DNA of 64,000 nucleotides, from contig JAYQTA010000003.1 in the NCBI GenBank assembly GCA_038147155.1, positions 90,838 through 154,837 on the forward strand, given 5' to 3'. This DNA is from Candidatus Australimonas brisbanensis. GTDB taxonomy: Bacteria; Chloroflexota; Dehalococcoidia; Lucifugimonadales; Australimonadaceae. The position numbers were made by a program, and so were the translations under genes. Shown here in pieces: positions 1-59,015 of the stretch. How positions within the stretch are numbered: the first letter of the stretch is position 1; each line of letters starts with the position of its first letter. The notes beneath the pieces were generated by a model. The model saw only the letters and a list, made by a program, of their open reading frames with translations. It searched no databases and had not been told where the DNA came from.

Positions 1-979
1 CCGCGAACAGGGCGATGGACCCGGCCATGATGGCGTAGGAGAGCGCCATCACCTTCTGCACCGGCACCCGTTCGGCCCACACCCCCGCCACCAGCGAGAT
101 GGGGATGGCGACGAAGGGGGCGATGGACAGGCTCACCACCGCCGCCGCCGAGGAGACGCCCTCGCCGGTCAGGTAGGTGAACCAGTGGAAGTGCACCGCC
201 GTGGTCACGAACGACTGGATGCTCACCGCCGCGGTGATGAGGTAGAAGGCGGGGGCGCGCAGCGCCTGGCGTCCGTTGAAGGAGCGCTCCGCCAGCACCC
301 TGCCCGCGCGCCGGTCGGTCTCGGCCCGCGAGGCCGCTGTGGCGGGGTCCACCCCGTCGGGCAGCAGGCCCATGTCCTCCGGCCTGCGCCTCAGCAGCAG
401 CAGGGTGGGGGCCAGGGCGACGGCCCAGACGGTGAGGCCCATGGCCCACCAGCCCGTGCGCCAGGAGCCCGTGAGCAGGATGCGCTCCGCCATGACAGGG
501 AAGGTGATCTGCCCCACCCGTTGGCCCAGGTTCGCCAGGGCGATGGCGCGTCCGCGCATCGCCACGAACCACTTGGGGATCACCACGCCCACCACCATGA
601 AGAAGGTGGAGGCGATGACCGTCCGGCCCACCAGTTGGAGGACGAAGTGCTGCCAGTAGGCCTGCACGGCGGCCATGAGCACGAAGGTGAGGCCCATGAG
701 CAGGATGGCGATGGTCATCACCATGCGCGCGCCGCGCCGATCCATGACGCGCCCCACCAGCAGGGAGGTGACCCCGCCCACGAAGGAGCCGATGGACATG
801 GGCAGCGTGTAGGTGACGCGGCTCCAGCCGAACTCGGCGGTCATGGGGCCCTGGAACACGCCCAGCACCGGGTTGGTCTCCACCCCTCCCGCGAAGGAGA
901 TGATGGAGACCACCAGGACGATGACCCATCCGTAGTAGCGCCTGCGCTGGGGTGCGGGAGAGCCGGGTTCGTCCGCCAT
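1..979 (-). CDS. MFS transporter (oxalate/formate-antiporter-like), C-terminal part runs off the left edge
   Basis: Not in the ORF track because it has no stop inside the window. Hand translation of the reverse strand from ATG 979..977 gives MADEPGSPAPQRRRYYGWVIVLVVSI..., the same R-x-YYGW N-terminus as the MFS paralogs at 12781, 53189 and 55727. The ATG shares one base with the TGA of the upstream gene (TGATG). Confidence 0.75.
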   Translation of the reverse strand, partial: MADEPGSPAPQRRRYYGWVIVLVVSIISFAGGVETNPVLGVFQGPMTAEFGWSRVTYTLPMSIGSFVGGVTSLLVGRVMDRRGARMVMTIAILLMGLTFVLMAAVQAYWQHFVLQLVGRTVIASTFFMVVGVVIPKWFVAMRGRAIALANLGQRVGQITFPVMAERILLTGSWRTGWWAMGLTVWAVALAPTLLLLRRRPEDMGLLPDGVDPATAASRAETDRRAGRVLAERSFNGRQALRAPAFYLITAAVSIQSFVTTAVHFHWFTYLTGEGVSSAAAVVSLSIAPFVAIPISLVAGVWAERVPVQKVMALSYAIMAGSIALFA

Positions 980-1983
980 CAGTCGATGGTGACGACGAAC
1001 TTGCCGAAGTGCTCGGAGCGCTCCATCTCGGCGTGGGCTTCGGCCAGCCCCTCCAGCCCCACGGTGCGGTGGATGGCGCTGGCCACCTTGCCGGCGCCCG
1101 CGGCCTCCACGATCTGGCTCAACTCCGTGTTGGTGCCCATGAACACCCCGTACACTCGCAGTTCCTTGGTGAACAGCTGGCCCAGGTGCAGGTTGGCCTT
1201 GTAGCCGGAGGTGACCCCGCAGATGCCGTAGCGTCCGCCGCGTGCCAGGGAGGCGTAGGCGTCCTCGAAGAACAGGGCCCCGGTGGAGTCCACCACCAGG
1301 TCAACGCCCTTCCCGCCGGTGAGCTCCTTGACCCGCTCGGCCAGCGCCTCGTCCTTGTAGTTGATGGTCTCGTCGGCGCCCAGCGCCCTGGCCGCGGCCA
1401 CCTTCTCCGGGGTGGAGGTGACGGCGATGCACCGCCCACCCACCACGCCCTTGACGATTTGGATCGCCGCCGTGCCCACGCCGCTGGAGGCGGAGAGCAC
1501 TAGCGCCGTCTCGCCCGCCTTCATCTGCCCCTCGCGCATGATGATGGACCAGGTGGGCAGGTAAACCGTGGGCAGCGCCGCCGCCTGCTCGTAGGAGAGG
1601 GAGTCGGGGATGGGCACCGCGTTGGCCGCGGGCACCACCACGTACTCGGCGTCGGAGCCGGGGGCGTGGGTGCCCACCATGTGCGGGTAGGGCACGTTGG
1701 TGATGAGCGGGTTCACCACCACCCGCTGACCGGTGCGCAGGCCCGCCACGCCCGCGCCCACGGCGCTGACCTCGCCCGCGCAGTCGCCGCCCAGCACGTG
1801 AGGCATCTTGTCTGCGGGCACCTGGGTGCCGCGCAGCCCAGCGCGGGTGTACAGGTCGAGCCGGTTCAGGGCGGCGGCGCGCACGCGCACCTGAACCTGC
1901 CCTTCGCCGGGTGCTGGCGTGGGCACCTCGCCCACCTCGATGACCTCGGGGCCGCCGTGCTGGCGGATGAACGCTGCTCTCAT
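979..1983 (-). CDS. NADPH:quinone oxidoreductase / zinc-type alcohol dehydrogenase (MDR) family
   Basis: 334-aa ORF. N-terminus MRAAFIRQHGGPEVIEVGEVPTPAPGEGQVQVRVRAAALNRLDL and a Rossmann segment LVLSASSGVGTAAIQ are typical of quinone oxidoreductases. Confidence 0.85.
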   Translation of the reverse strand: MRAAFIRQHGGPEVIEVGEVPTPAPGEGQVQVRVRAAALNRLDLYTRAGLRGTQVPADKMPHVLGGDCAGEVSAVGAGVAGLRTGQRVVVNPLITNVPYPHMVGTHAPGSDAEYVVVPAANAVPIPDSLSYEQAAALPTVYLPTWSIIMREGQMKAGETALVLSASSGVGTAAIQIVKGVVGGRCIAVTSTPEKVAAARALGADETINYKDEALAERVKELTGGKGVDLVVDSTGALFFEDAYASLARGGRYGICGVTSGYKANLHLGQLFTKELRVYGVFMGTNTELSQIVEAAGAGKVASAIHRTVGLEGLAEAHAEMERSEHFGKFVVTID

Positions 1984-8761: not shown

Positions 8762-12780
<4,019 letters not shown>

Positions 12781-14082
12781 CTAGGAACCCTGCGGGGCCA
12801 TATCAGGGTGGCGCGGCGGACGCGCCAGCGACATCAGCACCACGTTTAGGGCGAAGACCCCGCCGAAGATGAGGAACGCGGGTGTGTAGGAGCCGGTGGA
12901 GTCCTGGATGAACCCGGTGAGGGTGGGCCCCAGCGGGGCGAACAGGCGGAAGGGGGCGGTGAAGCCCCGGATCGCCCCCAGTGAGCGGCGGCCGAAGTAG
13001 TCGGCGTAGAGCATGTTCTCGATGACGGTCGAACCGCCCACCGCCAACCCGAAGGTGAGAGCGAAGGCCACCGCCAGCAGGTAGGAGTCGGCGATGATGA
13101 CTATGAGCATGGAGCAGAGCAGCAGGAAGCTCATGAGCATCGCTCCGTAGCGCACGTGGAGCCGGTCCAGCACCAGGCCCCAGGGCACCCCGGTGACGGC
13201 GGAGGTGGCGGCGAAGATGGAGAGCACGCTCACCGCAAGCGCGTCGGGCAGGCCCTTGTCGGAGAAGTTGCTCACCAGGTGCAGGTTGATGGCGCCCAGG
13301 GCGAAGCGGTCCACCGACATGTACGCCACCAGCAGCCAGAAGGCGCGCGTGCGCCGCGCTTGCGCCAGCGTCCAGGAGACGTCCTCCACGGTGCGGGCGA
13401 AGCGCGAGCCCCCTGCCCGGGGGGTTGCCTCGCGAGGCGCCGCATCGCCGTCGGGGTGGAGACCCAGGTCCTCCGGCCGCCGGCGCAGGTAGAGGGCACC
13501 GGGGACGATGATGGTGAGGGCGGTGAACCCCGCCAGCGCGGCGAAGGCCACCCGCCAGGACGAGGCGGCCATGATGGCGAAGATGACCATGGGGATGATG
13601 GCCTGGCCCGCACGCAGCCCCACGCTGCGCACCGCCACGGCGCGCCCCCGCTTGCGGACGAACCAGTTGGCGATGGTGACGCTGATGCCGATCTGGATGC
13701 CTGCCAGCGCCGACCCGCGTCCCACTCCGAACGCCAGCCAGAACTGCCAGGGCTCCTGCATCACCGACATACCCAGCATGGCCAGGGCGATGATGACCCC
13801 CGAGCACACCACGATGACCCGCGAGCCGTACCGGTCCAGCGCCTTGCCGAAGACGAAGGAGGAGACGTTGCCCGTCATGCTCCCCACGGTGAAGGCGAAG
13901 GAGATGGTGGCGCGCGACCAGCCCAGCTCCTCCTGCATGGGGGTGATGAACACCCCCAGCACCGGGCCGAACATGGGCACCATGCCGAAGGAGGCCACCA
14001 GCCCCGTGGCGACGATGGCCCAGCCGTAGTAGAGGCGCTTGAAGGGCCAGAGCCGAGGGATGGCGGGCGTCACGTCCTGCAC
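12781..14082 (-). CDS. MFS transporter (OFA-like)
   Basis: 433 aa, 12 predicted helices, N-terminus FKRLYYGWAIVATG as in the paralogs. Confidence 0.85.
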   Translation of the reverse strand: MQDVTPAIPRLWPFKRLYYGWAIVATGLVASFGMVPMFGPVLGVFITPMQEELGWSRATISFAFTVGSMTGNVSSFVFGKALDRYGSRVIVVCSGVIIALAMLGMSVMQEPWQFWLAFGVGRGSALAGIQIGISVTIANWFVRKRGRAVAVRSVGLRAGQAIIPMVIFAIMAASSWRVAFAALAGFTALTIIVPGALYLRRRPEDLGLHPDGDAAPREATPRAGGSRFARTVEDVSWTLAQARRTRAFWLLVAYMSVDRFALGAINLHLVSNFSDKGLPDALAVSVLSIFAATSAVTGVPWGLVLDRLHVRYGAMLMSFLLLCSMLIVIIADSYLLAVAFALTFGLAVGGSTVIENMLYADYFGRRSLGAIRGFTAPFRLFAPLGPTLTGFIQDSTGSYTPAFLIFGGVFALNVVLMSLARPPRHPDMAPQGS

Positions 14083-14136
14083 GTTCCGCTCCTGGGGCGG
14101 GATGGGGCCCGGTGATGATACGCCCCCGGGAGCGGG

Positions 14137-37263: not shown

Positions 37264-37365
37264 CCGGTTCACCCGCCTCCCTGTTGTTCTCCTTGTTGGC
37301 TCAGGGGGTGCGTGCTACCATGCGGCGGTGATTCGTTCGGAAAATCACGAACCACCGAGGCGGCG

Positions 37366-38370
37366 ATGACCCCCACCCCCCCGCAGCACCAAGCCGGGCT
37401 GACCGCGGACACCGCGACGCTGCGCGAGCGGGCGCGCCGGGCCATCGCGGAGCAGCCCGCCAAGACGGTCACGGTGCTCTCCTGCCTGCTGGCCGCCCAC
37501 CATGAGTTGGGCTGGCTGCCCGCTGAGGCCCTGGACGAGGTCGCTCAGCGCATGGACACCTCGGCCAGCGCCGTCTGGTCCATCGCCTCTTTCTACCCCA
37601 ACTTCCGCTTCACCCCGCCCAACCGGCACGTGGTGGAGGTGTGCTGGGGCCCCACCTGCCACGTCATGGGCGCGCAGCCGTTGCTCCAGGGCCTGCTGAC
37701 CCACCTGGGGTTGGAGGGCGAGGGCGAGACGGATGACGGGGCCATCTCCCTCAAGTACAACCCGTGCCTGGGCGTGTGCCCGCACGGACCGGCCATGTCC
37801 TTCGACCACCAGCTGGCGGGGCGCGTCTCGCTGACCGAGGCTGAGCGGCGCATCGCGCTGCTGCGCGTGGCGGACGAGGAGGCAGCCAAGGAGGCCCGGC
37901 TGGGCGAGGAGTCGGAGCGCGAGGCCGCCGAGCGGCGCGAGCGCTCCTCCCGTGCGGCGGTGGACCGCAACGCGACCCGGGCGCGTGCCCAGCGCGAGGA
38001 CGCGGTGGCCTCGGCCATCGCCGACCTGTACGCGCCGCGTGAGTCCAAGGTGACCATGCCCGTTGACCGCGTGCCCGGTGAGAGCGCGCCCGTGGCGGAG
38101 GCCCCGAAGCCTGCTCTCCGTGAGGAGAGCGCCGAGGAGCGCGCCGCACGCGTCGCGAGCATCGAGGCGGCCATCGCGGGGCTGTCGGGCAAGCCTGCCG
38201 CCGAGGCGCCCGCCAACGAGGCCGTCGCGGAGCCGGAGGCGAAACCCGCTGCCACGGCCAAGGCGAAGCCCGTTAAGGCCAAGGCGGCGCCCGAGAAGTG
38301 GGCCGCCAAGAAGCCCGCGAAGAAGCCGGCCAAGAAGAAGAACGCCAAAGGCGATGGGGGTAAGGCGTGA
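37366..38370 (+). CDS. NuoE-like [2Fe-2S] subunit with long charged / Lys-Ala-Pro-rich C-terminal extension
   Basis: CWGPTC...CLGVC Cys ligands. Start at ATG 37366 after GAGG. The last roughly 165 aa are low complexity, ending AKKPAKKPAKKKNAKG. Confidence 0.8.
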   Translation: MTPTPPQHQAGLTADTATLRERARRAIAEQPAKTVTVLSCLLAAHHELGWLPAEALDEVAQRMDTSASAVWSIASFYPNFRFTPPNRHVVEVCWGPTCHVMGAQPLLQGLLTHLGLEGEGETDDGAISLKYNPCLGVCPHGPAMSFDHQLAGRVSLTEAERRIALLRVADEEAAKEARLGEESEREAAERRERSSRAAVDRNATRARAQREDAVASAIADLYAPRESKVTMPVDRVPGESAPVAEAPKPALREESAEERAARVASIEAAIAGLSGKPAAEAPANEAVAEPEAKPAATAKAKPVKAKAAPEKWAAKKPAKKPAKKKNAKGDGGKA

Positions 38371-40148
38371 GCGAGGCGTACGAGGCGCTCTCCCAGCGCG
38401 CCGCTGACCATGTGGCCGATCTCGCCGCGCGCCCGTGGGTGCGGGTGGGCACGGGACTCATGGGCCTGGCATCCGGTGCGCGCGATACGCTGGGCGCGCT
38501 GCGGCACGACATCGCCCGCACCGGTGTGGACGCGACCATCTCCGAGGTGGGCACCCTGGGCCTGTGCTACGCCGAGCCCCTGGTGGACATCCAGGCGCCC
38601 GGCGGCCCGCGCGTGCTCTACGGCAACGTGGGCCCGGAGGACGTGCCGGAACTGGTGGCTGAACACGTGACGGGCGGACGGCCCGTCGCCTCGCGGGCGC
38701 TGGCGGTGATCGAGGGCGCCGTGCCCGGCGTCCCCGCCCTGGACGACCTGCCCATGATGGTGAAGCAGGTGCGGGTGGCGCTGCGCAACGCGGGCCATAT
38801 CGACCCCTCGGACATCCTCCAGTACATCGCTCGTGGCGGCTACGCGGGGCTCGACCGGGCCCTGGGCATGGAGCGCACCGCCCTGGTGGACGAGGTGAAG
38901 CGCTCCAACCTGCGTGGGCGGGGCGGAGCCGCCTTCTCCACGGGCACCAAGTGGAGCTTCCTTGCGGGCAACCCCTCGCCGGTCAAGTACATCCTGTGCA
39001 ACTGCGAGGAGGGCGACCCGGGCGCCTTCAACGACAAGACCATCCTGGACTCGGACCCCTACACCCTGGTGGAGGGGTGCACCATCGCGGGCTTCGCCTG
39101 CGGGGCATCCAATGGCATCGTCTTCATCCGCGACGGCCACGAGGCGCCCATCGAGCGCACCCGCGCGGCGATCGAGGCGGCCTACGAGCACGGCCTGCTG
39201 GGGGAGGACATCCTCGGCTCCGGCTTCACCTTCCACATGGAGGTGGCCCTGGTGGGCGAGTCGTACGTGGCGGGTGAGGAGACGGCGCTGATGGAGGCCA
39301 TCGAGGGCCGCCGCTCCATGCCCCGCTTCCGTCCGCCCTTCCCTGCGGCCTACGGCGTGTGGGGCAAGCCCTCCAACATCAACAACATCAAGACGCTCTC
39401 TTACGCACCGGAGATCGTGCGCCGGGGGGCCGACTGGTTCCTGTCCATCGGCACCGAGAAGTCGCCCGGCACCGCCATCGCGTGCCTCTCGGGCGACATC
39501 CGCTACCCCGGGCTGGTGGAGGTGCCCTTCGGCCTGACCATGCGTCAGGTGGTGGAGGAGCTGGGCGGCGGGGACCCGGACGGCCGGCCCATCAAGTTCC
39601 TTCAGACGGGCGGGCCCCTGGGAGGGGTGCTGCCGGCGGACCAGCTGGACATCGTCCTGGACTTCGATGCCATGGTGGCGGCGGGGGCCATGTTCGGCTC
39701 CGGCGGGCTCATCGTGTGCAACGAGGGGCGTTCGGTGGTGGACCTGATCCGCGTGCTGGTGGCCTTCGACCAGCTGGAGTCGTGCGGCAAGTGCTTCCCG
39801 TGCCGGTTGGGTTCTTCCCACCTGCTGGAGGTGCTGGAGCGGCTGTGCGCCGGGGAGGGGCGTCCGGGTGACTGGGCGCTGATGGAGCGGGTGGGCAACA
39901 ACATGCGCGCCGGTTCCCTGTGCGGCCACGGGCAGCTGGGCTACAACCCGGTGGCCTCGGCGCTGCGCTTCTTCAAGGAGGAGTTCGAGGCGCAGGCCTC
40001 TGGCCAGGGGCCCATCCCCATCGGCCGGTTCGTGGGCCCGCGCAACACCCGCCGGGGCGCGCAGCTGGAGGGCGAGACGCCCACCGCCGCCGTCAGGGCT
40101 GACTTCGTGGCTCGTCCGCGCCCCATCGGCGCTGGCGCGGGGGAGTAG
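38367..40148 (+). CDS. NuoF-like NAD(H)/FMN-binding, [4Fe-4S] subunit with N-terminal thioredoxin-like domain
   Basis: GRGGAAFSTGTKW, FMN/NADH glycine loops and ESCGKCFPCR cluster motif. GTG start overlaps the upstream stop. Confidence 0.88.
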   Translation: MSEAYEALSQRAADHVADLAARPWVRVGTGLMGLASGARDTLGALRHDIARTGVDATISEVGTLGLCYAEPLVDIQAPGGPRVLYGNVGPEDVPELVAEHVTGGRPVASRALAVIEGAVPGVPALDDLPMMVKQVRVALRNAGHIDPSDILQYIARGGYAGLDRALGMERTALVDEVKRSNLRGRGGAAFSTGTKWSFLAGNPSPVKYILCNCEEGDPGAFNDKTILDSDPYTLVEGCTIAGFACGASNGIVFIRDGHEAPIERTRAAIEAAYEHGLLGEDILGSGFTFHMEVALVGESYVAGEETALMEAIEGRRSMPRFRPPFPAAYGVWGKPSNINNIKTLSYAPEIVRRGADWFLSIGTEKSPGTAIACLSGDIRYPGLVEVPFGLTMRQVVEELGGGDPDGRPIKFLQTGGPLGGVLPADQLDIVLDFDAMVAAGAMFGSGGLIVCNEGRSVVDLIRVLVAFDQLESCGKCFPCRLGSSHLLEVLERLCAGEGRPGDWALMERVGNNMRAGSLCGHGQLGYNPVASALRFFKEEFEAQASGQGPIPIGRFVGPRNTRRGAQLEGETPTAAVRADFVARPRPIGAGAGE

Positions 40149-40151
40149 ACT

Positions 40152-42947
40152 ATGTCTGACCCGGTCAAGCTGACCATCAACGGGGTCGAGGTCGAGACCA
40201 CCCCCGACAAGATGCTGATCCAGGCTGCCAACGAGGCCGGGGTCTACATCCCCTACCTTTGCTACCACCCCGGCATGAAGCCCTATGGGGCATGCCGCAT
40301 GTGCGTGGTGGAGGTGGAGGGCCAGCGTGGCACCCCCGCCGCCTGCACCCTGCCGGTGCGCGATGGCATGGTGGTGAACACCGTAGCCGCCCCCGCCGAG
40401 GGCGTGCGCTCCACCACGCTGGACCTGCTGCTCTCCGAGCACCCCCATGGGTGCCTCACCTGTCACCGCATCGACCTGTGCGGGCCGCAGGACGTGTGCC
40501 TGCGCCACGTGGACGTGCTGGACCGGTGCGTCACCTGCCCCAAGAACGAGCGGTGCGAGCTCAAGGACACCACCCGCTTCCACCCGCAGCCGCAGGTCTC
40601 CCCGCTGACCTTCCAGTACCGGGGCCTCCAGGTGGAGACCAAGGACCCCTTCTACGACCGCGACTACAACCTGTGCATCGTGTGTGCGCGGTGCGTGCGC
40701 GCCTGCGATGAGCTGCGGGGCGACGTGGCCCTGGGCATGACCGAGCGCGCCGGCCAGGTGCTGGTGGGCACGGTGCTGGGCGAATCGCTGCTGGAGGCGG
40801 GGTGCGAGTTCTGCGGGGCGTGCCTGGACGTGTGCCCCGTGGGCGCTCTCACCGAGACGGACAACAAGTGGGAGCGCGCCACCCGCACGGTGCAGTCGGT
40901 GTGCGGGGAGTGCCCCGTGGGCTGCACCATGACCTACGAGGTGAACAGGCAGGGCAGGGTGGTGCGGGCCATCCCTGAGCTCAACTCCCCGGTGAACAAG
41001 GGGCAGGCGTGCTTCCGGGGCAAGTTCGGCTACACCTACGTCAACGACAAGCGCCGCCTGCGCACCCCGCTGGTGCGCCGCGACGGCGTGCTCACCGAGG
41101 CCACCTGGGAGGAGGCGATCGCCGCCGCCGCCGAGGGGTTGGCCCCGCACAAGGGCGCCTTTGCCCTGCTCACCGGCGGGCGCGAGACCAACGAGGAGCT
41201 GTACGCGGCGCAGAAGTTCGCCCGCGCGGTCATGGGCTCCAACTCCGTGGACATGGCCTCCAACGACCGCCCCGGCGTGGCCGAGGGCATCCAGGACGTG
41301 TTCAGCGTCTTCGCGGGCACCCTCTCCGTGCAGGAGCTGCGCTCCTCCAAGGTGGTGCTGGCCGTGAGCGCCAACCCCACCGAGGACCAGAACGTGGTGG
41401 CGGTGCCCATCAAGCAAGCGGTGCGCGCGGGCACCCAGAAGCTCATCGTGGTGGACGCTCGCGAGGTGGAGCTCACCCGCTACGCCGCCCTGTGGCTGCG
41501 CCCGTACCCCGGCACCGAGGGCGCTGTGGTGGGTGGGATGCTCAAGGCGGTGCTGGACCTGGGCCTGGCCGACCCCGCCGAGGTTGCGGGCCGCGCCGAC
41601 GGGTTCGACGACCTGGCCGCCTCCCTGGAGGCGTTCACCCCGGAGGCCGTCGAGGACGTGACCGGCGTGCCTGCCGAGCAGCTGCGCGCCGCCGCCGAGC
41701 TGTACGCCACCGGCGGCCCGGCGGCCACCCTCTACGCCGCCGACTCCACCGCCCACGGCACCCGGCGCAACCTGGGCCGCGCCGCCACGGCCCTGGCTGT
41801 GGTGACGGGCAACGTGGGCGTCCCCGGAGCGGGGCTCATGCCGCTGATGGCCGGAGCCAACGTGCAGGGCGCATGGGACATGGGCGTGTGGTCCATGTCG
41901 CTGCCCGGCCACAGTTTCGTGCGCGACGGTGCGGCCCGCGAGCGGCTGGGCGCACTGTGGGGCGTGAGCCTGCCCACCGCCGAGGGGCGGGGCAACGTGA
42001 ACATCGTGCGCGGGGCCTCAGACGGGACGGTGCGGGCGATGCTGGTGCTGGGCACCCACGCCGCCATGGCCGACGGCTCTCTGGGCGATGTGGCCGGGGC
42101 CTTCGCCAACCTTCAGTTCCTGGCCGTGTCCGATGCCTTCCCCTCGGCCATCACCGAGCAGGCCGACGTGGTCTTCCCCGCCACCGTCTGGGCGGAGAAG
42201 ACCGGCACCTACACCAACCTTGAACGCCGCGTGCAGGCGCTGGTGCCGGTGGTGTGCCCGCACAACTCCCAGGCCCGCTCTGACGTGGCGCTCATCGGTG
42301 ACCTGGCCACGGCCATGGGGGCGCGCGGATTCAGCTGGGCCGGACCGGAGACGGTGCTGGAGGAAATAGCCCAGGCGGTGCCGCAGTACGCGGGCATCAC
42401 CTACGCGGGCCTGCTGGACGATACCGTCCGGTCGGCCAAGCCCGACACCTCCAACCCCCAGCCCACCCAGGTGCTCTACTCCGAGGACGTGCGCCAGGGC
42501 ACCCGCTGGCCCTACCCGGACACCCGCCCGGTGCTGGCCCCGCTCACCCTCTACGCGCGCCCCGAGCGCACCAGCGATGAGTTCCCGCTGATGCTGGCCC
42601 ACGGTCGGGTGCTGGTGCAGCCGGGGCGCGATGCGGGCGTCGCCTCCGACGGGAAGCGCAACCGGGTGGCCCGCGCCGAGGAGTTCGTCCTGCACCCGGC
42701 GGACGCCGAGCGCGCGGGGCTCACCGACGGAGAGCACGTGTGGGCAGTTGCCGATTCCGGCTGGCGCCAGGGTGGGTACGTGCGCATCAGCGATGAGACG
42801 CTGGAGGGGGTCGTCTCCCTCACCAGCCTGTTCGGGGCCCTGGCCGTGGAGGCCGACGCCTCTGCCGACCCCGACCCCATGAACCGCATACCCCGGCTCG
42901 ACGCGCGCCCCGTGCGCATCGAGCGCGAGCAGGGGGCCCAGGCATGA
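40152..42947 (+). CDS. NuoG / formate-dehydrogenase-alpha-like molybdopterin-fold subunit
   Basis: N-terminal 2Fe-2S motif (CYHP...CRMC), H-x3-C-x2-C-x5-C, two CxxCxxCxxxCP clusters, CGECPVGC MopB cluster, C-terminal MopB_CT-like domain. Confidence 0.85.
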   Translation: MSDPVKLTINGVEVETTPDKMLIQAANEAGVYIPYLCYHPGMKPYGACRMCVVEVEGQRGTPAACTLPVRDGMVVNTVAAPAEGVRSTTLDLLLSEHPHGCLTCHRIDLCGPQDVCLRHVDVLDRCVTCPKNERCELKDTTRFHPQPQVSPLTFQYRGLQVETKDPFYDRDYNLCIVCARCVRACDELRGDVALGMTERAGQVLVGTVLGESLLEAGCEFCGACLDVCPVGALTETDNKWERATRTVQSVCGECPVGCTMTYEVNRQGRVVRAIPELNSPVNKGQACFRGKFGYTYVNDKRRLRTPLVRRDGVLTEATWEEAIAAAAEGLAPHKGAFALLTGGRETNEELYAAQKFARAVMGSNSVDMASNDRPGVAEGIQDVFSVFAGTLSVQELRSSKVVLAVSANPTEDQNVVAVPIKQAVRAGTQKLIVVDAREVELTRYAALWLRPYPGTEGAVVGGMLKAVLDLGLADPAEVAGRADGFDDLAASLEAFTPEAVEDVTGVPAEQLRAAAELYATGGPAATLYAADSTAHGTRRNLGRAATALAVVTGNVGVPGAGLMPLMAGANVQGAWDMGVWSMSLPGHSFVRDGAARERLGALWGVSLPTAEGRGNVNIVRGASDGTVRAMLVLGTHAAMADGSLGDVAGAFANLQFLAVSDAFPSAITEQADVVFPATVWAEKTGTYTNLERRVQALVPVVCPHNSQARSDVALIGDLATAMGARGFSWAGPETVLEEIAQAVPQYAGITYAGLLDDTVRSAKPDTSNPQPTQVLYSEDVRQGTRWPYPDTRPVLAPLTLYARPERTSDEFPLMLAHGRVLVQPGRDAGVASDGKRNRVARAEEFVLHPADAERAGLTDGEHVWAVADSGWRQGGYVRISDETLEGVVSLTSLFGALAVEADASADPDPMNRIPRLDARPVRIEREQGAQA

Positions 42948-53188: not shown

Positions 53189-54466
53189 TTGAGCGCCCCC
53201 ACCCTCAACCCCATCGCCCGCGCCATCGCGCGCGGGTCCTTCTACTACGGCTGGGCCGTTTCTGCCTCCGTCTCGCTGACGGTGCTGGCGGCCATGACCT
53301 ACGCTGTTTCCACCTTCTCCGCCTTCGTTGAGCCCCTCTCCCGTGAGCACGGCTGGTCGCGCACGGCCATCAGCGCCGCCATCTCCTTCGGCACCGTGGG
53401 CGCGGCGGCGGCGGGCCCGCTCTTCGGACGGCTGACGGACCGCTACGGGGCGCGCTGGCTCTTCACACTGGGCACGGTGTTCATGGGTCTGGGCCTGCTG
53501 GGCATGGCCAACATGGGCAGCCTGTTCGCCTTCTACGTCTTCTACGCCATGGGCCGCACGATGATGATGAACTTCGAGCACCTGGTGGGCCCCACTGTGG
53601 TGGCCAACTGGTTCATCGCACGCCGCGCCACGGCCACCGCGCTGATGCTGGCGGCATCGCGGGTGGGGCTGGGCCTCTGGCCCGCGCTGGCGGGGGTGCT
53701 CATCGCCGTCTCCGGCTGGAAACTCGCGGCCACCGTGATGGGCATCGCGGTGCTGGCGACGGCGGTGGTGCCGCTGCTGGTGGTGGTGGCCCGGCGGCCC
53801 GAGGACGTGGGCATGGAGCCCGACGGACGCAGACCCGCCGAGGGGACGCCGGCAGAACCGGAGTGGACGGCGCGCCAGGCATTGGGCACCCAGGCGTTCT
53901 GGGCGCTGATGATGGCCTCGGCGCTGGGCCTGTTCGCAGGGGGCGGCATGGGGCTGCACCGCATCCCCTTCTTCACCGAGCGGGGCCTGAGCCCGGTGTG
54001 GGTGGGGCCGATTCTCATGGGGTTCGGCGCGGGCATGGCGGTGGGCGGGTTCGTGGCAGCGCGCATGCACCGGCGCATGGGCGCGCGCGCCGTCACGGGG
54101 GCGTTCATGGTGTATGGTGCCGCCGTCATGGCCGTTGCCCTCATCACGCCCCCCAACGGGTGGTCTGTGGTGTACGGGCTGGCCGACGGAGCGGTGTTCG
54201 GCGGCATGTTCACGTTGCAGCCGGTGATCTACGCGGGCTTCTACGGGCGGCGCTCGGTGGGCACCATCCGCGGCCTAGCGCACCCGGCGCTGATGCTGGG
54301 CAACGCTGCGGGTGCGCTCTTCGGCGGCGTGCTGTATGACTTCACCGGCGGTTCCTACACCCTGGTGTTCCTCACCTTCAGCGTCCTGCTCCTGGCGGCG
54401 GCGGGGCTGGTGGCCCTGGCTCGCCACCCTGGCGCATCGCCCGCCACGGACGCCGCCCATGCCTAG
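53189..54466 (+). CDS. MFS transporter (OFA-like)
   Basis: [15 protein letters not shown]-terminus, 12 helices. TTG start is uncertain. Confidence 0.8.
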
Positions 54467-55724
54467 CCCGGCCGCAGCACTGCGGGCGGTGCGTGAGCGC
54501 CCACTGGTGCGCCAGCTCATCCTGCTCTACACCGCCACGGTGCTGGTGGGGGCGGGGCAGGGGACGCTGGTGCCCACGATCCCGGCGCTGGACGATGCCT
54601 TTGGGGTCTCGGCGGGCGCGGCGGCGCAGGTCATCACCGCCTACGGCATCGGCCGCTTCGGCGGCATGGTGGTGGGCGGGATGGTGGTGGACCGGTTCGG
54701 CCCACGCCTGGCGGTGACCGTCGGCCCCGTGGTGCTGGCGCTCTCCGCCCTGGGTGCGCTGCTCACCCCCTGGTTCGTCGTGCTACTGGGCATCGTGTTC
54801 GTCCTGGGCGTGGGCGATGCCTTCTGGCAGATGGGGCGAGAGATCACGGGCGTGGAGCTGGTGCGCTCCGACCAGCGCGGCCGGTTGCTATCGGGCTTCA
54901 TGGGTTTCCACGCCGTGGGCCAGTCCACGGGCGCGGTGGTGGGTGGGCTCATCACCGACGGATTCGGCTATCGGGGCGTGTTCGTCTTCTACCTGGCGGT
55001 GGCGCTGGTGGTGCTGGTGCTGGGGCGGATGATGACCACCCCACCGCACCACCGCCACGAGGCCCCCGCGCGCACGGGCCCCGCTCGGCGAGGCCCCCTG
55101 GGATGGGTGAGCGGGCTGCGCGAGATATTCCTCGCCATCGACCCGGCCCTGCGCCTCTCCTACGCCATCTTCGTCTTCGCCACCCTGTCCATGATGACCT
55201 ACCGGATGGTCTACCAGGCCATCATGCCGGTGTACGCCGCTGATGAACTGGGCATGTCCTCCACCCAGGTGGGGCTGGTCTTCTCCATCATCGGCGTGTT
55301 CTCTCTGCTGATGATCGTCCCCTCCGGCCTGCTCTCGGACAAGAAGGGGCGCAAGTGGGCCACCGTGCCCTCAACGCTGATCCCGGGCGTGGCCTTCATG
55401 CTGCTGCCGTTGAGCAGCGTGCCGCTGCACATGGTGTTCATCGGCGCGGGCATCGGCATCGCCAACGGCCTCTCGCTGGGCTCCATCGCCACCTCCACCT
55501 ACGACGTCTCGCCGCCCCACGTGCGCGGCCGGTTGCAGGCGGTGCGGCGCACCGTGGCCGAGGTGGGCGGCATCGGCGGGCCCATGCTGGGCGGGTACCT
55601 GACCAACGTCCACGGGCCGGGCATGGCGTTCTGGGCCACGGGGCCATTGGCGCTGGTGGCAGCGGTGCTCCTGTTCTTCGTGGCCAAGGAAACGCTGACG
55701 CGCCAGCGGCGGGAGGTGGGCTAG
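54459..55724 (+). CDS. MFS transporter (different subfamily)
   Basis: Start trimmed to ATG 54459 ([11 protein letters not shown]...), overlapping the upstream stop by 8 nt. 12 helices. Confidence 0.78.
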   Translation: MPSPAAALRAVRERPLVRQLILLYTATVLVGAGQGTLVPTIPALDDAFGVSAGAAAQVITAYGIGRFGGMVVGGMVVDRFGPRLAVTVGPVVLALSALGALLTPWFVVLLGIVFVLGVGDAFWQMGREITGVELVRSDQRGRLLSGFMGFHAVGQSTGAVVGGLITDGFGYRGVFVFYLAVALVVLVLGRMMTTPPHHRHEAPARTGPARRGPLGWVSGLREIFLAIDPALRLSYAIFVFATLSMMTYRMVYQAIMPVYAADELGMSSTQVGLVFSIIGVFSLLMIVPSGLLSDKKGRKWATVPSTLIPGVAFMLLPLSSVPLHMVFIGAGIGIANGLSLGSIATSTYDVSPPHVRGRLQAVRRTVAEVGGIGGPMLGGYLTNVHGPGMAFWATGPLALVAAVLLFFVAKETLTRQRREVG

Positions 55725-55726
55725 CC

Positions 55727-57004
55727 GTGTGGCTGGTGCGGCGCACCCCCTTCTACTACGGGTGGGTGGTGGCGGGGGCCGCCTCAGCCACCATGATGCT
55801 CACGGGCACCTTCGCAGCGCCCATCTTCGGCGTGTTCATCGAGCCGTGGACGGCGGAGTTTGGCTGGTCTCGCACGGCCATCTCCGGCGGCTTCTCCTTC
55901 GCCACCGTGGTGGCGGCCCTGGTGGGCCCGCTGGCCGGGCGGGGGCTCGACCGCTACGGCGGGCGCCTGTTCCTGGGGGGCGGCGCGCTGGTGATGGCGG
56001 GATCACTCCTGGTGCTCTCGCGGGTGAGCAGCCTGCTGGCGCTCTACCTGGTCTTCTCCGTGGGCCGTTCGGCCATGATGACCATCCAGAACCTGGCCGC
56101 CCACACCTTGGTGGCCAACTGGTTCGTGCGCCGCCGCGCCTTCGCCTCTGCCCTGGCGCTCAACGGCTCGCGGGTGGGGCTGGCCGTCTGGCCGCTGGTG
56201 GCCGCAGGGGTCAGCGCCGCCGCGGGCTGGCGCACGGCCATGGTGGTGATGGGCGTGAGCATCGGCATCCTGTCTTTGATACCGCTGGTGCTGGTGGTGG
56301 CTCGGCGGCCGGAGCAGGTGGGCCTGCTGCCCGACGGCGCCTCCGCAACGCCCGCGGCGGGTGGTGTGCTCCGGCACGCCCCGGAGCAGCGCCAGTGGAC
56401 CCCCCGTGAGGCGCTGCGCACCCGCGCCTTCTGGCTGCTCATGTCGGCTCACATGGCGGCCATGGTGGCGGGGGGCGGCATGGGCGTGCATCGCATCCCC
56501 TACTTCGTCGCCAAGGGGCTCGATGAAGCGCTGGTGGGGCTGTTCATCGTCGCCTTCGCCGTGGGCATGGGCATCGGCGGCTTCTTCGCCGCAGCCGCGG
56601 TGCGGTGGGTGCCCGTGCGCCGCGTCATCGGCCTCTCCCTGGCGGGCGCGGCGGGCAGCACGGCGCTCATCCTGCTGGTGCCGGGCAACGCCCTGGCGGT
56701 GGGCTACGGCTTCCTGGACGGGCTGTTCGCGGGGGGCATGTTCGCCCTGCTGCCGGTGGTGTACGCCGACTACTACGGGCGCAACGCCATCGGCACCATC
56801 CGGGGCATCACCCACCCCGCCGTGGTCACGGCCAACGCTGCCGGGCCCCTGGTGGCCGGGGTGGTGTTCGATGTGCTGGGCGGCTACACCTTCGCCTTCT
56901 TCGCCTTCGGCATCGTCCTGGTGGCGGGGGCGAGCGCCTCGTGGCTGGCCGCTCCGCCCGCCGTTGACAGCGCTCCGGTCTCCCCACAGACTGACGCCAC
57001 CTAG
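55727..57004 (+). CDS. MFS transporter (OFA-like)
   Basis: GTG 55727 (VWLVRRTPFYYGWVVAG...) lies 2 nt after the upstream stop. Paralog of 53189. Confidence 0.8.
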   Translation: MWLVRRTPFYYGWVVAGAASATMMLTGTFAAPIFGVFIEPWTAEFGWSRTAISGGFSFATVVAALVGPLAGRGLDRYGGRLFLGGGALVMAGSLLVLSRVSSLLALYLVFSVGRSAMMTIQNLAAHTLVANWFVRRRAFASALALNGSRVGLAVWPLVAAGVSAAAGWRTAMVVMGVSIGILSLIPLVLVVARRPEQVGLLPDGASATPAAGGVLRHAPEQRQWTPREALRTRAFWLLMSAHMAAMVAGGGMGVHRIPYFVAKGLDEALVGLFIVAFAVGMGIGGFFAAAAVRWVPVRRVIGLSLAGAAGSTALILLVPGNALAVGYGFLDGLFAGGMFALLPVVYADYYGRNAIGTIRGITHPAVVTANAAGPLVAGVVFDVLGGYTFAFFAFGIVLVAGASASWLAAPPAVDSAPVSPQTDAT

Positions 57005-57023
57005 CGCACGCGAGGAGGCGGTC

Positions 57024-57857
57024 ATGGCAACCGACGGCGGCTACGCACATCCCGAGCACCTGGTGGACCCTGCCTGGCTCCAGGCGCACCTGAACGATGG
57101 GGACCTGGTCATCGTGGAGGTGGGCGCCCAGCCCGACCCCTTCGCCGCCGGGCACATCCCCGGCGCCATCCCGTGCGCTGACTGGCACATCAAGGACAGG
57201 GCCAACCCCGCGCTGGTGGCCCCGCCCGCCGAGGCTGCCGCCATGCTGGAGGCGCTGGGCATCGGCGACGGCACGCGCGTGGTCGCCTACGACCGCACCC
57301 GCAACCGCGACGCCTCCCGCCTGTGGTGGGTGCTGCGCTACTACGGCCACACCAACGTGCAGGTGCTGGACGGCGGGTGGAAGCACTGGGGCATCGTCGG
57401 CGGGCCGGTGGAGCAGGGGGCGGGCAGCGCCCCCCGCGCCGGGGCGCGCTTCACCCCCCGCGTGGACGCCGCGCACCTGTGCACCGTGGACAGCCTGAAG
57501 GCGGCCATCGGCGATGGGCGCTCCGTCATCTGGGACGCGCGCGGGGAGGACGAGTACACCGGCGCCAACGACCGGGGCAACAAGCGCAAAGGCCACGTGC
57601 CGGGGGCGCGCCACCTGGAGTGGACGAACCTGGTGAACGAGGCCGACCACACCTTCAAGCCCGCCGCCGAGCTGCGAGCGCTGGTGGCCAGCATCGGCAT
57701 CAGCCCCGAGACACCCGTCCACGTCTACTGACAGGGGGGTGTCCGTGCGGCGCACGGCACACTGGCCCTCAGCCTCCTGGGCTACGAGAAGGCGTACATG
57801 TACGACGGGTCCATGGGTGAGTGGGCCAATCGGGACGACACTCCCCTGGAGATGTAG
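57024..57857 (+). CDS. two-domain rhodanese sulfurtransferase with in-frame UGA (candidate selenocysteine) replacing the catalytic Cys
   Basis: ATG 57024 after GAGGAGG. The track ORF stops at TGA 57729..57731 (…TPVHVY*). The same frame continues QGGVRAAHGTLALSLLGYEKAYMYDGSMGEWANRDDTPLEM to TAG 57855..57857, completing the C-x-G-x-R active-site loop and the YDGSxxEW motif. Confidence 0.75.
57739..57762 (+). promoter_or_regulatory. SECIS-like hairpin downstream of UGA 57729..57731
   Basis: GUGU-CCGUGC-GGC-GCACGG-(C)-ACAC: 6-bp and 4-bp stems with one bulged C. The G-rich apical loop starts at 57749, 17 nt after the last base of the UGA. Confidence 0.4.
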
Positions 57858-57878
57858 CGGCCTCGCCGGCGGATGAGC

Positions 57879-57958
57879 CTAGAGGGGTGCAGGGGAGAGG
57901 GGACCTCTCCCTGCCGGGGGTAGACGCGAAGCGTCACAGGGGGTGTCCCCCTGCCGTC
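57879..57958. repeat. right-end module of the repeat family (copy a)
   Basis: CTAGAGGGGTGCAGGGGAGAGGGGACCTCTCCCTGCCGGGGGTAGACGCG..GGGGGTGTCCCCCTGCCGTC. Confidence 0.75.
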
Positions 57959-57982
57959 GAACCCGCGAAGAGGGTGGAGAAC

Positions 57983-58016
57983 GCAGAGGCCCCGCGAGTC
58001 ATCGCGGGGCCTCTGC
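57983..58016. terminator. bidirectional terminator-like hairpin between convergent genes
   Basis: Perfect 15-bp stem GCAGAGGCCCCGCGA / TCGCGGGGCCTCTGC with a 4-nt loop. Only a weak T tract (TTCG) follows on the + strand. Confidence 0.5.
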
Positions 58017-58077
58017 TTCGAGAGGGCGGGCCTGGGGAGTGGACGGGGCCAGAGGGGAAGGGGCTCCGTCCGTCAGT

Positions 58078-58159
58078 CCCGAGGGGGATGCAAGGGGGAA
58101 TGGAAGTCCCCCTGCCGGGGGTAGTGCCTCCCGCGCGCGGGGGGTGTCCCCCTGCCGTC
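58078..58159. repeat. right-end module of the repeat family (copy b, direct repeat of 57879)
   Basis: …GGGGGAATGGAAGTCCCCCTGCCGGGGGTAGTGCC..GGGGGGTGTCCCCCTGCCGTC. The 3' half is the same as in copy a, and the stem sequence differs in a compensatory way. Confidence 0.7.
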
Positions 58160-58175
58160 AGAGCAGTCCCGCGTC

Positions 58176-59015
58176 CTAGTTGATGTCGAACACCGCCTGG
58201 ATCGTCACGCTCACGGTCAACTCGTCCGCCGAGATGATGGTGGGCGTCGCCTCGCCGATGGCCGCGTCGGCCGCCGCGAAGGCCCGCTCGTCCAGCGTCT
58301 TGGGGTAGGCGGAGTAGGAGGACTCAGCCACGTATGCCAGCTGCCCGCGCTGCACGCCCAGGCCCTGGGCGTAGGTGTCCGCCCTTCCCAGCACGTCGGC
58401 CAGCGCCAGCTCACGCGCCTGCTGCTCGGCGGCAGCGCCGTCCTCAAGGCTGAAGGAGATGCCGTTCACGCGGGCGTTGTCGCCACCGGCCAGGGCCGCG
58501 GCGTCAACCACGCTGCCCACCTCGTCCAGGTCGCGCACCTTGGCCGTCACCTGGTTGCTCACGCGGTAGCCCACCAGCACCGACTCGCCACCGAAGGTGG
58601 AGGAGCGGTACTCGTACTGAGGCTGGACGGAGAAGTACCGCGTGGCGATGTCCCTGTCCGCCACGCCCGCCGCGTGCAGCGCCGCGACCACCGCGCTCAT
58701 GGCGCGGGCGGCTTCCTCGCGCGCCTCGGCCACCGACTTGGCCGTCGCCTCGACGCCCAGGCTCACCACCGCCAGATCCGGCTGGGCCTTGACCACGCCG
58801 GTGCCCGTCACGTGGATGCCCGTGCCCGAGTAGGACGTCTGCGTAGTGATGCCGATGCCCTTGCCCAGCGCCTCCAGCTGCGCCGTGGACAGGTCTCCCA
58901 GCGCCGAGCCCCGCACCGTCGCGTCCGGGGAGCATGCCGCTCCCATCAGGCCCAGCGCCGCGAGCGCACCCACCAGCGCGAGCCTCCCACCACCCATCCG
59001 CCACATCCTGCCCAT
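58176..59015 (-). CDS. SIMPL-domain (DUF541, YggE-like) secreted/lipoprotein
   Basis: Signal peptide ending LMGAAC. GTGVVKAQPDLAVVSLGVE...YFSVQPQY matches the SIMPL architecture. Confidence 0.78.
   Translation of the reverse strand: MGRMWRMGGGRLALVGALAALGLMGAACSPDATVRGSALGDLSTAQLEALGKGIGITTQTSYSGTGIHVTGTGVVKAQPDLAVVSLGVEATAKSVAEAREEAARAMSAVVAALHAAGVADRDIATRYFSVQPQYEYRSSTFGGESVLVGYRVSNQVTAKVRDLDEVGSVVDAAALAGGDNARVNGISFSLEDGAAAEQQARELALADVLGRADTYAQGLGVQRGQLAYVAESSYSAYPKTLDERAFAAADAAIGEATPTIISADELTVSVTIQAVFDIN

Follow-up and report, generated by a model that had tools for sequence, protein, structure and literature searches.

A 64-kb stretch of DNA from Candidatus Australimonas brisbanensis (contig JAYQTA010000003.1), referred to below as the window (all 64,000 nucleotides (nts) that were analyzed), contains an interrupted rhodanese gene at 57024..57857 on the forward strand. 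This region is very probably one gene, and a working selenoprotein gene: it would encode a two-domain rhodanese-type sulfurtransferase of the SseA/COG2897-like kind, in which residue 236, specified by an in-frame UGA, is selenocysteine (Sec). The evidence comes from the position of the UGA opposite the catalytic Cys of homologs, the purifying selection on the codons that follow it, and a conserved hairpin embedded in those codons.

A TGA codon at the catalytic position of a two-domain rhodanese

The open reading frame (ORF) 57024..57731 comprises 235 sense codons, the last of which encode ...ISPETPVHVY, and is closed by the TGA triplet at 57729-57731. Downstream of this triplet, the same frame continues as QGGVRAAHGTLALSLLGYEKAYMYDGSMGEWANRDDTPLEM up to a TAG stop codon at 57855-57857, giving a product of 235 + 1 + 41 = 277 residues. 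Both the early end of the ORF and its continuation to TAG had been pointed out by an earlier reading made from the letters alone (hereafter the sequence-only reading), and both are seen directly in the DNA. The first 235 codons (57024..57728) encode an N-terminal rhodanese domain and the greater part of the catalytic domain at the C-terminus, the TGA (57729..57731) is the inferred Sec codon in the column of the persulfide-forming catalytic Cys, and the last 41 codons (57732..57854) supply the remainder of the active-site loop (QGGVRA) as well as the C-terminal YDGSMGEWANRDDTPLEM. A Shine-Dalgarno-like GAGGAGG (57012..57018) lies 5 nts upstream of the ATG at 57024. In agreement with the two-domain rhodanese of 277 residues that had been proposed, Pfam detects two PF00581 (Rhodanese) stretches in the read-through product (E 4e-37). 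The N-terminal domain has Asp at the Cys-equivalent position (...VVAYD... in the translation) and is inactive.

The window has a GC content of 71.6%, and in such DNA a very high GC content at third codon positions (GC3) marks real genes. When all TGA triplets on both strands were examined, the one at 57729-57731 was the sole TGA flanked on both sides by an open frame of GC3 > 0.85, and no second gene with an in-frame TGA was found across the 64 kb. TGA serves as the normal stop codon of Pfam-verified or readily recognizable genes of the window (DNA ligase, tRNA-synt_1b, B12-binding protein, and ECF sigma factor), and thus the genetic code has not been reassigned.

We searched 5.8 billion proteins and analyzed the best 120 homologs or clusters. 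In 53 of these, the protein is 231-240 aa long and ends in ...[HFY][VTIA]Y, one residue short of the catalytic Cys, so that the truncation expected of standard gene callers is indeed what the databases contain. Among the full-length homologs (271-289 aa), nearly all have Y-C-Q-[GA]-G-[IV]-R-A-A-H at that column. Homolog DNA was then taken from metagenome contigs and from GTDB representatives (one genome per species), where the catalytic column is TGA in 85 genes (82 loci) and TGC in two. The TGA genes always continue in frame with Q-[GA]-G-[IVL]-R-...-W-[AG]-N-R-[DE]-D and reach a true stop codon approximately 40 codons later. Moreover, the TGA of the window gene aligns with the catalytic Cys of the Thermus thermophilus rhodanese 1UAR, the closest solved structure (residues 6-275, E 2.4e-40). 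The proposal that UGA takes the place of the catalytic Cys therefore holds, given that 1UAR and nearly all full-length homologs have Cys in this column. Bacterial selenoprotein genes are recognized by such Sec/Cys pairs, in which a UGA stands opposite a conserved, essential Cys, and also by TGA-containing orthologs whose frame is conserved on both sides of the codon, as in the 85 genes found here.

For the 40 codons downstream of the UGA, the median pairwise ratio of nonsynonymous to synonymous substitution rates (dN/dS) is 0.20-0.22, as against 0.35 for the 120 codons upstream; with dN/dS at ~0.2, the downstream part is therefore translated, and no other part of the protein is as constrained. 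This result bears on the possibility that translation mainly ends at the UGA, the functional product being a catalytically dead 235-aa fragment (e.g., a regulator or a binding protein), and that read-through is minor. Sec insertion competes with release factor 2 (RF2), and a truncated product is expected under selenium limitation, which speaks for some termination. However, the strongest purifying selection of the gene falls after the UGA, the 235-aa fragment lacks both the catalytic loop and the final helix that the rhodanese fold has in 1UAR, and the relatives with Cys are always full length. We thus consider termination as the main outcome extremely unlikely.

If a Cys codon (TGC or TGT) had mutated to TGA in a pseudogene, or had been misread as TGA during sequencing or assembly, only a dead 235-aa fragment would be made, which could explain why this gene and the 53 homolog clusters are annotated as 231-240-aa proteins and why NCBIfam gives only a sub-threshold SseA match. 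Against this, independent assemblies also have the TGA: a 987-bp JGI contig (L001), the only one on which the 235-aa product was found, that is identical to the window over the compared stretch, and a Logan contig (L207) with 91.5% nucleotide identity to the window. In the latter, the 58 nts past the TGA contain four differences, all at third codon positions, and the three that fall in complete codons are synonymous. In addition, the TGA recurs in all 85 genes, which belong to separate species, and the downstream dN/dS of ~0.2 is accompanied by the frozen synonymous sites and compensatory hairpin changes described below. This explanation has a minimal probability and is effectively refuted.

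A conserved hairpin downstream of the TGA codon

The codons that follow the TGA contain a core hairpin, CCGUGC-GGC-GCACGG, at 57743..57757 (forward strand; stem 57743-57748/57752-57757, loop GGC 57749-57751, -8.0 kcal/mol). It is read in frame as ..C CGT GCG GCG CAC GG, and has a 6-bp stem and a loop that starts with G; the stem begins 11 nts after the UGA, and the loop lies 17 nts after the A of UGA. The stem can be extended to 11 bp at 57738..57763 (forward strand), with a bulged C at 57758 (-14.7 kcal/mol, z -2.3), and this outer extension is partly conserved in the family: pairs 17-34 and 14-37 are formed in >93%, and pairs 15-36 and 16-35 in about half. A published model of the bacterial Sec insertion sequence (bSECIS), as quoted in a 2026 review, has a stem of 4-16 bp, a loop of 3-9 nts with G in the first two loop positions, a UGA-to-loop distance of 16-37 nts, and an MFE (the minimum free energy) of at most -7.5 kcal/mol. 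The window hairpin, with its 6-bp stem, 3-nt GGC loop, 17-nt distance, and core energy of -8.0 kcal/mol, lies within all of these limits. The sequence-only reading had claimed a SECIS-like GC hairpin with a G-rich loop 17 nts after the UGA; besides agreeing with the published constraints, the hairpin proved to be frozen at synonymous sites, to covary, and to be missing from nearly all Cys forms.

For the synonymous-site test, normalized synonymous entropy was calculated for 159 scorable codon columns in 83 distinct TGA genes. Only four consecutive codons, +5 to +8, which make up the stem, have an entropy < 0.15, against a median of 0.70 elsewhere. Codon +5 (Arg) is CGT in 81/83 genes, codon +6 (Ala) is GCG in 76/79, codon +7 (Ala) is GCG in 69/69, and codon +8 (His) is CAC in 76/76, whereas a control Arg codon at +34 of the same genes is CGT in 3/83. 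Since the hairpin is made of active-site loop codons (I/V-R-A-A-H-G), synonymous sites are fixed and residue changes are those that preserve the pairs.

The pairing itself was examined by counting cells of the alignment. The six core pairs (columns 18-23/27-32) are formed in 97.4% of cells; sliding the 3' partner by 1-3 columns lowers this to 17-62%. In 13 cells of the stem, both partners have changed, a number reached by 0/500 shuffles. The outer C:G pair has become G:C in eight distinct sequences (including L003, L009-L013, L017, and L018) and A:U in L083, and a G:C pair has become U:A in L021, L026, L071, and L084, where the peptide RAAH is replaced by RSAN or RSSN with the stem kept. RNAalifold, applied to alignment A2, recovered the inner 4 bp only, with a covariation term of zero; its score is uninformative because the pairs are too conserved, and the pairs were therefore counted explicitly.

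Cys forms served as the third comparison. A degenerate DNA pattern for Y-C-Q-[GA]-G-I-R-A-A-H, in which the RAAH codons were left free, retrieved 75 distinct genes. All six hairpin pairs are present in 2/75 of these Cys forms and in 74/79 TGA forms. The Arg codon of the loop is CGC in 32, CGG in 19, and CGT in 10 of the Cys forms, as opposed to CGT in 81/83 TGA forms, and the His codon is CAC in 43 and CAT in 32, as opposed to CAC in 76/76. Among genes with the same peptide, CGTGCGGCGCAC occurs in 54/54 TGA forms and in at most 1/75 Cys forms. Of the 80 closest genomic loci, L073 (5196) and L086 (10676) are alone in carrying a Cys-form (TGC) gene, and CGT-GCG-GCG-CAC is lost in both, where the codons are CGC GCC GCG CAG and CGC GGC GCG CAC, respectively. 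Thus, the RNA structure is itself under selection in the TGA genes. These three comparative tests (synonymous sites, pairing, and the Cys-form control), and not folding energy, carry the case that the hairpin at 57743-57757 is a SECIS element, as predicted from the sequences.

Compared to bacterial SECIS elements of the E. coli fdhF/fdnG type, the window hairpin likewise lies inside the coding region right after the UGA and has an upper stem-loop whose loop starts with G followed by G/U; it differs in its very small loop (GGC, or GUC/GGG in variants) and in having no evident bulged U. A scan of the window with Rfam gathering thresholds detected no SECIS family.

Several variants were seen among the related loci. 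The 3.4-Mb Dehalococcoidia contig L002 has tandem TGA-rhodanese paralogs at 9735 and 10703, each with the same SECIS core. A re-registered stem, CGUGCUG-GUCA-CAGCACG (7 bp, GUCA loop), is found in L025 and L028 (~10700-10740) with the peptide R-A-G-H-S-T. In L020, L046, and L059, which have the peptide RAAN, the core pairing is weak or absent, and these genes may use another structure.

Family membership, evolution and proposed selenocysteine decoding

The sequence-only reading had mentioned Sec-containing rhodaneses from metagenome surveys, and such proteins are on record. Zhang, Fomenko & Gladyshev (2005; PMC1088965) listed a 'rhodanese-related sulfurtransferase' (COG2897) among 15 new selenoprotein families of the Sargasso Sea and showed a predicted SECIS element for it. 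Their supplement contains AACY01016424 (...TAT TGA CAG GCT GGA GTG CGT GCG GCG CAC GCA..., translated as YTYuQAGVRAAHANF...YDGSMGEWANLEDTPLVK) and AACY01314374 (TAC TGA CAA GGT GGC ATA CGT GCG GCG CAT GTA, Y-u-QGGIRAAH). Motif, SECIS core, and a BLASTP match between the window protein and AACY01016424 (49% identity, 67 aa, E 1e-24) place the window gene in the same family. The Sargasso Sea proteins (COG2897/cd01449) share the Sec position and the pattern Y-U-Q-[AG]-G-[VI]-R-A-A-H ... YDGSMGEWAN.EDTPL; their genes have the same SECIS core, CGUGC-GGC-GCACG, at the same distance from the UGA, with CGT GCG GCG CA[CT] at +5 to +8, complementary flanks, and also the G...C variant of the outer pair found in L003 and L009. 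The Sargasso Sea sequences are short marine fragments (74-aa ORFs), one of them AT-rich, whereas the window gene is full length and lies in 71.6% GC DNA with a visible neighborhood. The window gene is thus a full-length, high-GC member of a selenoprotein family published in 2005 and no new kind.

In a survey of Global Ocean Sampling (GOS) data (Zhang & Gladyshev 2008; PMC2398784), cd01449 comprised 8 Sec and 3,367 Cys sequences. Among the PF00581 entries of the 2026 review is a 'form 4 (rhodanese-related sulfurtransferase)', which has the motif UxxG and MCY3690685.1 as its representative. The U-Q-G-G of the window protein fits form 4, the link being the UxxG motif and a reference shared with the Sargasso Sea families, presumably the 2005 paper. 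Other Sec-containing rhodaneses, namely the single-domain COG0607 forms 1-3 (e.g., NF041203) and the TsoB rhodanese/DsbD fusion, share the rhodanese fold and carry Sec within the active-site loop or adjacent to it, but differ from the window protein in architecture and motifs. Membership in the single-domain forms was ruled out by the U-Q-G-G motif and by the score for NF041203 (rhodanese_LYCAU, CxU motif), which was 30.3 bits with a cut-off of 115 and came from a match in the N-terminal domain.

The window protein aligns end to end with 1UAR, 1URH, and 1E0C, as expected of a two-domain rhodanese, in which the nucleophile opens a six-residue loop of the C-terminal domain. It shares an inactive N-terminal domain and a catalytic loop in the C-terminal domain with the Cys-type two-domain rhodaneses and 3-mercaptopyruvate sulfurtransferases (MSTs), including 1UAR, E. 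coli SseA (1URH), Mycobacterium tuberculosis SseA/CysA (3HZU/3AAX), Azotobacter vinelandii RhdA (1E0C), and bovine rhodanese (1RHD); its nucleophile would be Sec, and theirs is Cys. The loop has something of the C-Q-x-x-x-R-[AS] character of RhdA-like enzymes. The thiosulfate sulfurtransferase (TST) loop is CRKGVTA and the MST loop is CG[ST]GVTA, and Q-G-G-[IV]-R-A of the window protein matches neither. The score for the SseA equivalog NF008557 of NCBIfam was 129.4 bits, below its cut-off of 250 bits. Judging from these comparisons, the protein would be SseA-type in its working, and membership in SseA at the substrate level is not supported.

In a crude, midpoint-rooted neighbor-joining (NJ) tree, 83 Sec and 65 Cys forms are interleaved, with pure-Sec clades of 57, 12, 7, and 3 sequences and pure-Cys clades of 46, 8, 5, 2, and 2 sequences, which implies several switches. 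All Sec clades, the AT-rich Sargasso Sea sequence included, share one SECIS core, from which we infer, given a rough tree, that Sec is old in this rhodanese family, with Cys forms arising repeatedly through loss. The carriers of the TGA form are mostly metagenome-assembled genomes (MAGs) of Dehalococcoidia/SAR202. Outside Chloroflexota, the TGA form with the same SECIS was observed in two Candidatus Binatia (L061 and L064) and in Candidatus Entotheonella TSY1 (L083), which suggests that the gene spread horizontally together with its SECIS. A literature search for links between SAR202 and selenoproteins found nothing relevant among the papers listed.

Further examination of related Dehalococcoidia revealed a tRNA-Sec gene <8 kb from the TGA-rhodanese in L075 (17992-18088, reverse strand) and L078 (15805-15900, reverse strand), in each case 5-8 kb downstream. 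Both were detected by ARAGORN and score 74-75 bits with RF01852 (gathering threshold 47). The L075 tRNA, when read directly, has a UCA anticodon, an 8-bp acceptor stem, and the discriminator G73. Because L075 and L078 share gene order, they count as roughly one observation. The genes around these tRNAs were checked as sel gene candidates and rejected, being LutA/LutB-like (between) and an RlmD/Maf fusion (beyond).

It is conceivable that the UGA is recoded by means of the hairpin and that the inserted residue is not Sec: it might be Cys, delivered by a Sec-like tRNA and a SelB-like factor, or a near-cognate Trp or Cys, which would make the protein an ordinary Cys or Trp rhodanese produced in an unusual way. 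Cys-recoding tRNAs that resemble tRNA-Sec are known from some bacteria, and no Sec machinery was found among the genes of the 64-kb window. A full-length JGI protein of 275 aa (P0047) has Trp recorded at the Sec/Cys column (VYWQAGIRASH), which would also fit; the codon behind this Trp is probably a TGA read as Trp by an alternative genetic code, or else a TGG variant. On the other side, the L075 and L078 tRNAs score as tRNA-Sec in Rfam, the L075 tRNA having the Ser-type G73 and an 8-bp acceptor stem, the hairpin fits the SelB-type bSECIS model, and Chloroflexi are listed as Sec users in a 2006 survey. Moreover, a Cys codon would be far cheaper for the same product, yet TGA and hairpin are kept in 85 genes, and Trp as a catalytic nucleophile would be inactive. 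Recoding to a residue other than Sec is therefore highly improbable, and Sec remains the preferred identity of residue 236.

Some results weigh against a Sec-encoding gene with a functional SECIS element. Scanning at Rfam gathering thresholds found only tRNA-Lys and no tRNA-Sec in the 64-kb window, and neither Pfam annotation nor probe searches found selA, selB, or selD there. The probes were approximate E. coli SelA, SelB, and SelD sequences, compared by tblastn with the window and the fetched loci, and no sel protein genes were detected in ~1.6 Mb of flanks of related loci either; the only two matches, both of the SelB probe, in L019 and L203, were identified by NCBIfam as LepA and TypA and discarded. 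Selenoprotein reviews offered no protein-level evidence for any member of the family, whose forms are listed there as computational predictions. As for the hairpin, folding of the 65-nt context (57726-57790) gave z -0.9, no better than shuffles, and in DNA of this GC content folding energy alone is therefore weak evidence. The Cys forms in L073 and L086 also fold stable GC hairpins in other registers. Finally, covariation is confined to 2/6 core pairs, which is due to the strong conservation of the stem. With neither sel genes nor tRNA-Sec among the window genes, it is by way of its relatives that Sec is the probable inserted residue, and SelB dependence is likely, in Ca. Australimonas brisbanensis.

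Gene neighborhood, proposed mechanism and significance

The rhodanese gene is preceded by a major facilitator superfamily (MFS) transporter gene (55355..57004, forward strand), which is SfMCT/oxalate-formate-like at scores below curated cut-offs and probably starts downstream of 55355. Its TAG (57002-57004) lies 20 nts before the rhodanese ATG, and the two genes probably form one operon. The MFS-rhodanese adjacency is also seen in the Pfam tables of L004-L006 and L207; a systematic tblastn test of this adjacency across loci gave no matches at the thresholds used. The window has four paralogous MFS genes of the SfMCT/oxalate-formate-like kind, at 2-1300 (reverse), 12781-14136 (reverse), 53189-54466 (forward), and 55355-57004 (forward), and a fifth MFS gene of the drug-efflux type at 54312-55724. 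Downstream, a convergent SIMPL/DUF541 gene (YggE-like; 58176..59015, reverse strand) follows, and the same opposite-strand arrangement was found in 11 loci from the nearest clade.

The spacer between the rhodanese and SIMPL genes (57858-58175) contains a unit of ~82 nts duplicated 201 nts apart (57878-57958 and 58079-58159) and, between both copies, a perfect 15-bp inverted repeat with a 4-nt loop (57983-57997/58002-58016), which resembles a bidirectional terminator that has no U-tract. An intrinsic terminator scan of 56900-58300 found nothing. The palindromic core AGGGGGTGTCCCCCT is present in nine copies in the window (24945, 25069, 26447, 26663, 45600, 52884, 57938, 58139, and 62782), with 0.42 expected, and this suggests a repeated element similar to repetitive extragenic palindromic (REP) sequences. 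Elsewhere in the window, NuoE-like, NuoF-like, and FdhA-like genes form a trio (2Fe-2S, 4Fe-4S, molybdopterin; 37264-42947, forward strand). The FdhA-like molybdopterin subunit (40149-42947, 932 aa) is uninterrupted, and it is therefore no formate dehydrogenase of the Sec type.

In the mechanism that we propose, the hairpin at 57743-57757, extended to 57738-57763, would act as a bacterial SECIS when the ribosome nears the UGA. It would recruit SelB-GTP-Sec-tRNA(Sec), so that Sec could be inserted in competition with RF2, after which 41 more codons would be translated up to the TAG at 57855. The resulting enzyme would be expected to accept sulfane sulfur on its selenolate, with thiosulfate, 3-mercaptopyruvate, or a persulfide as the donor, to form an Se-S intermediate, and to pass the sulfur on to an acceptor. 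A more speculative role, which we regard as improbable, is that of a dedicated selenium/sulfane carrier, as opposed to a general sulfurtransferase, working through an Se-Se (perselenide) or Se-S adduct, with an active-site loop shaped by the SECIS stem. Such a carrier could feed selenide to SelD or handle a thio- or seleno-monocarboxylate supplied by the co-transcribed MFS transporter, and in that case selenium trafficking would itself be served by a selenoprotein. If the loop changes from R-A-A-H to R-S-A-N or R-S-S-N were shaped by the SECIS, an RNA structure would be dictating residues of a catalytic loop.

For the more probable Sec-containing sulfurtransferase, the consequences concern annotation and the comparison of Sec with Cys. 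Of the closest database homologs, over 40% (53/120 clusters) are stored as catalytically dead fragments of 231-240 aa, and this truncation is systematic because NCBIfam has no curated model that rescues the two-domain Sec form. Inventories of sulfur metabolism in Dehalococcoidia/SAR202 genomes thus probably miss this enzyme or mislabel it as truncated. A TGA-containing rhodanese gene may also be used as a marker of a Sec-decoding organism. The family has been known since 2005, and the value of the present finding lies in the correction of annotation and in a natural set for Sec/Cys comparison. The dozens of interleaved Sec and Cys versions, with the SECIS lying on the codons of the active-site loop, provide an unusually clean natural experiment, in which one could ask what Sec gives to a persulfide-forming enzyme.

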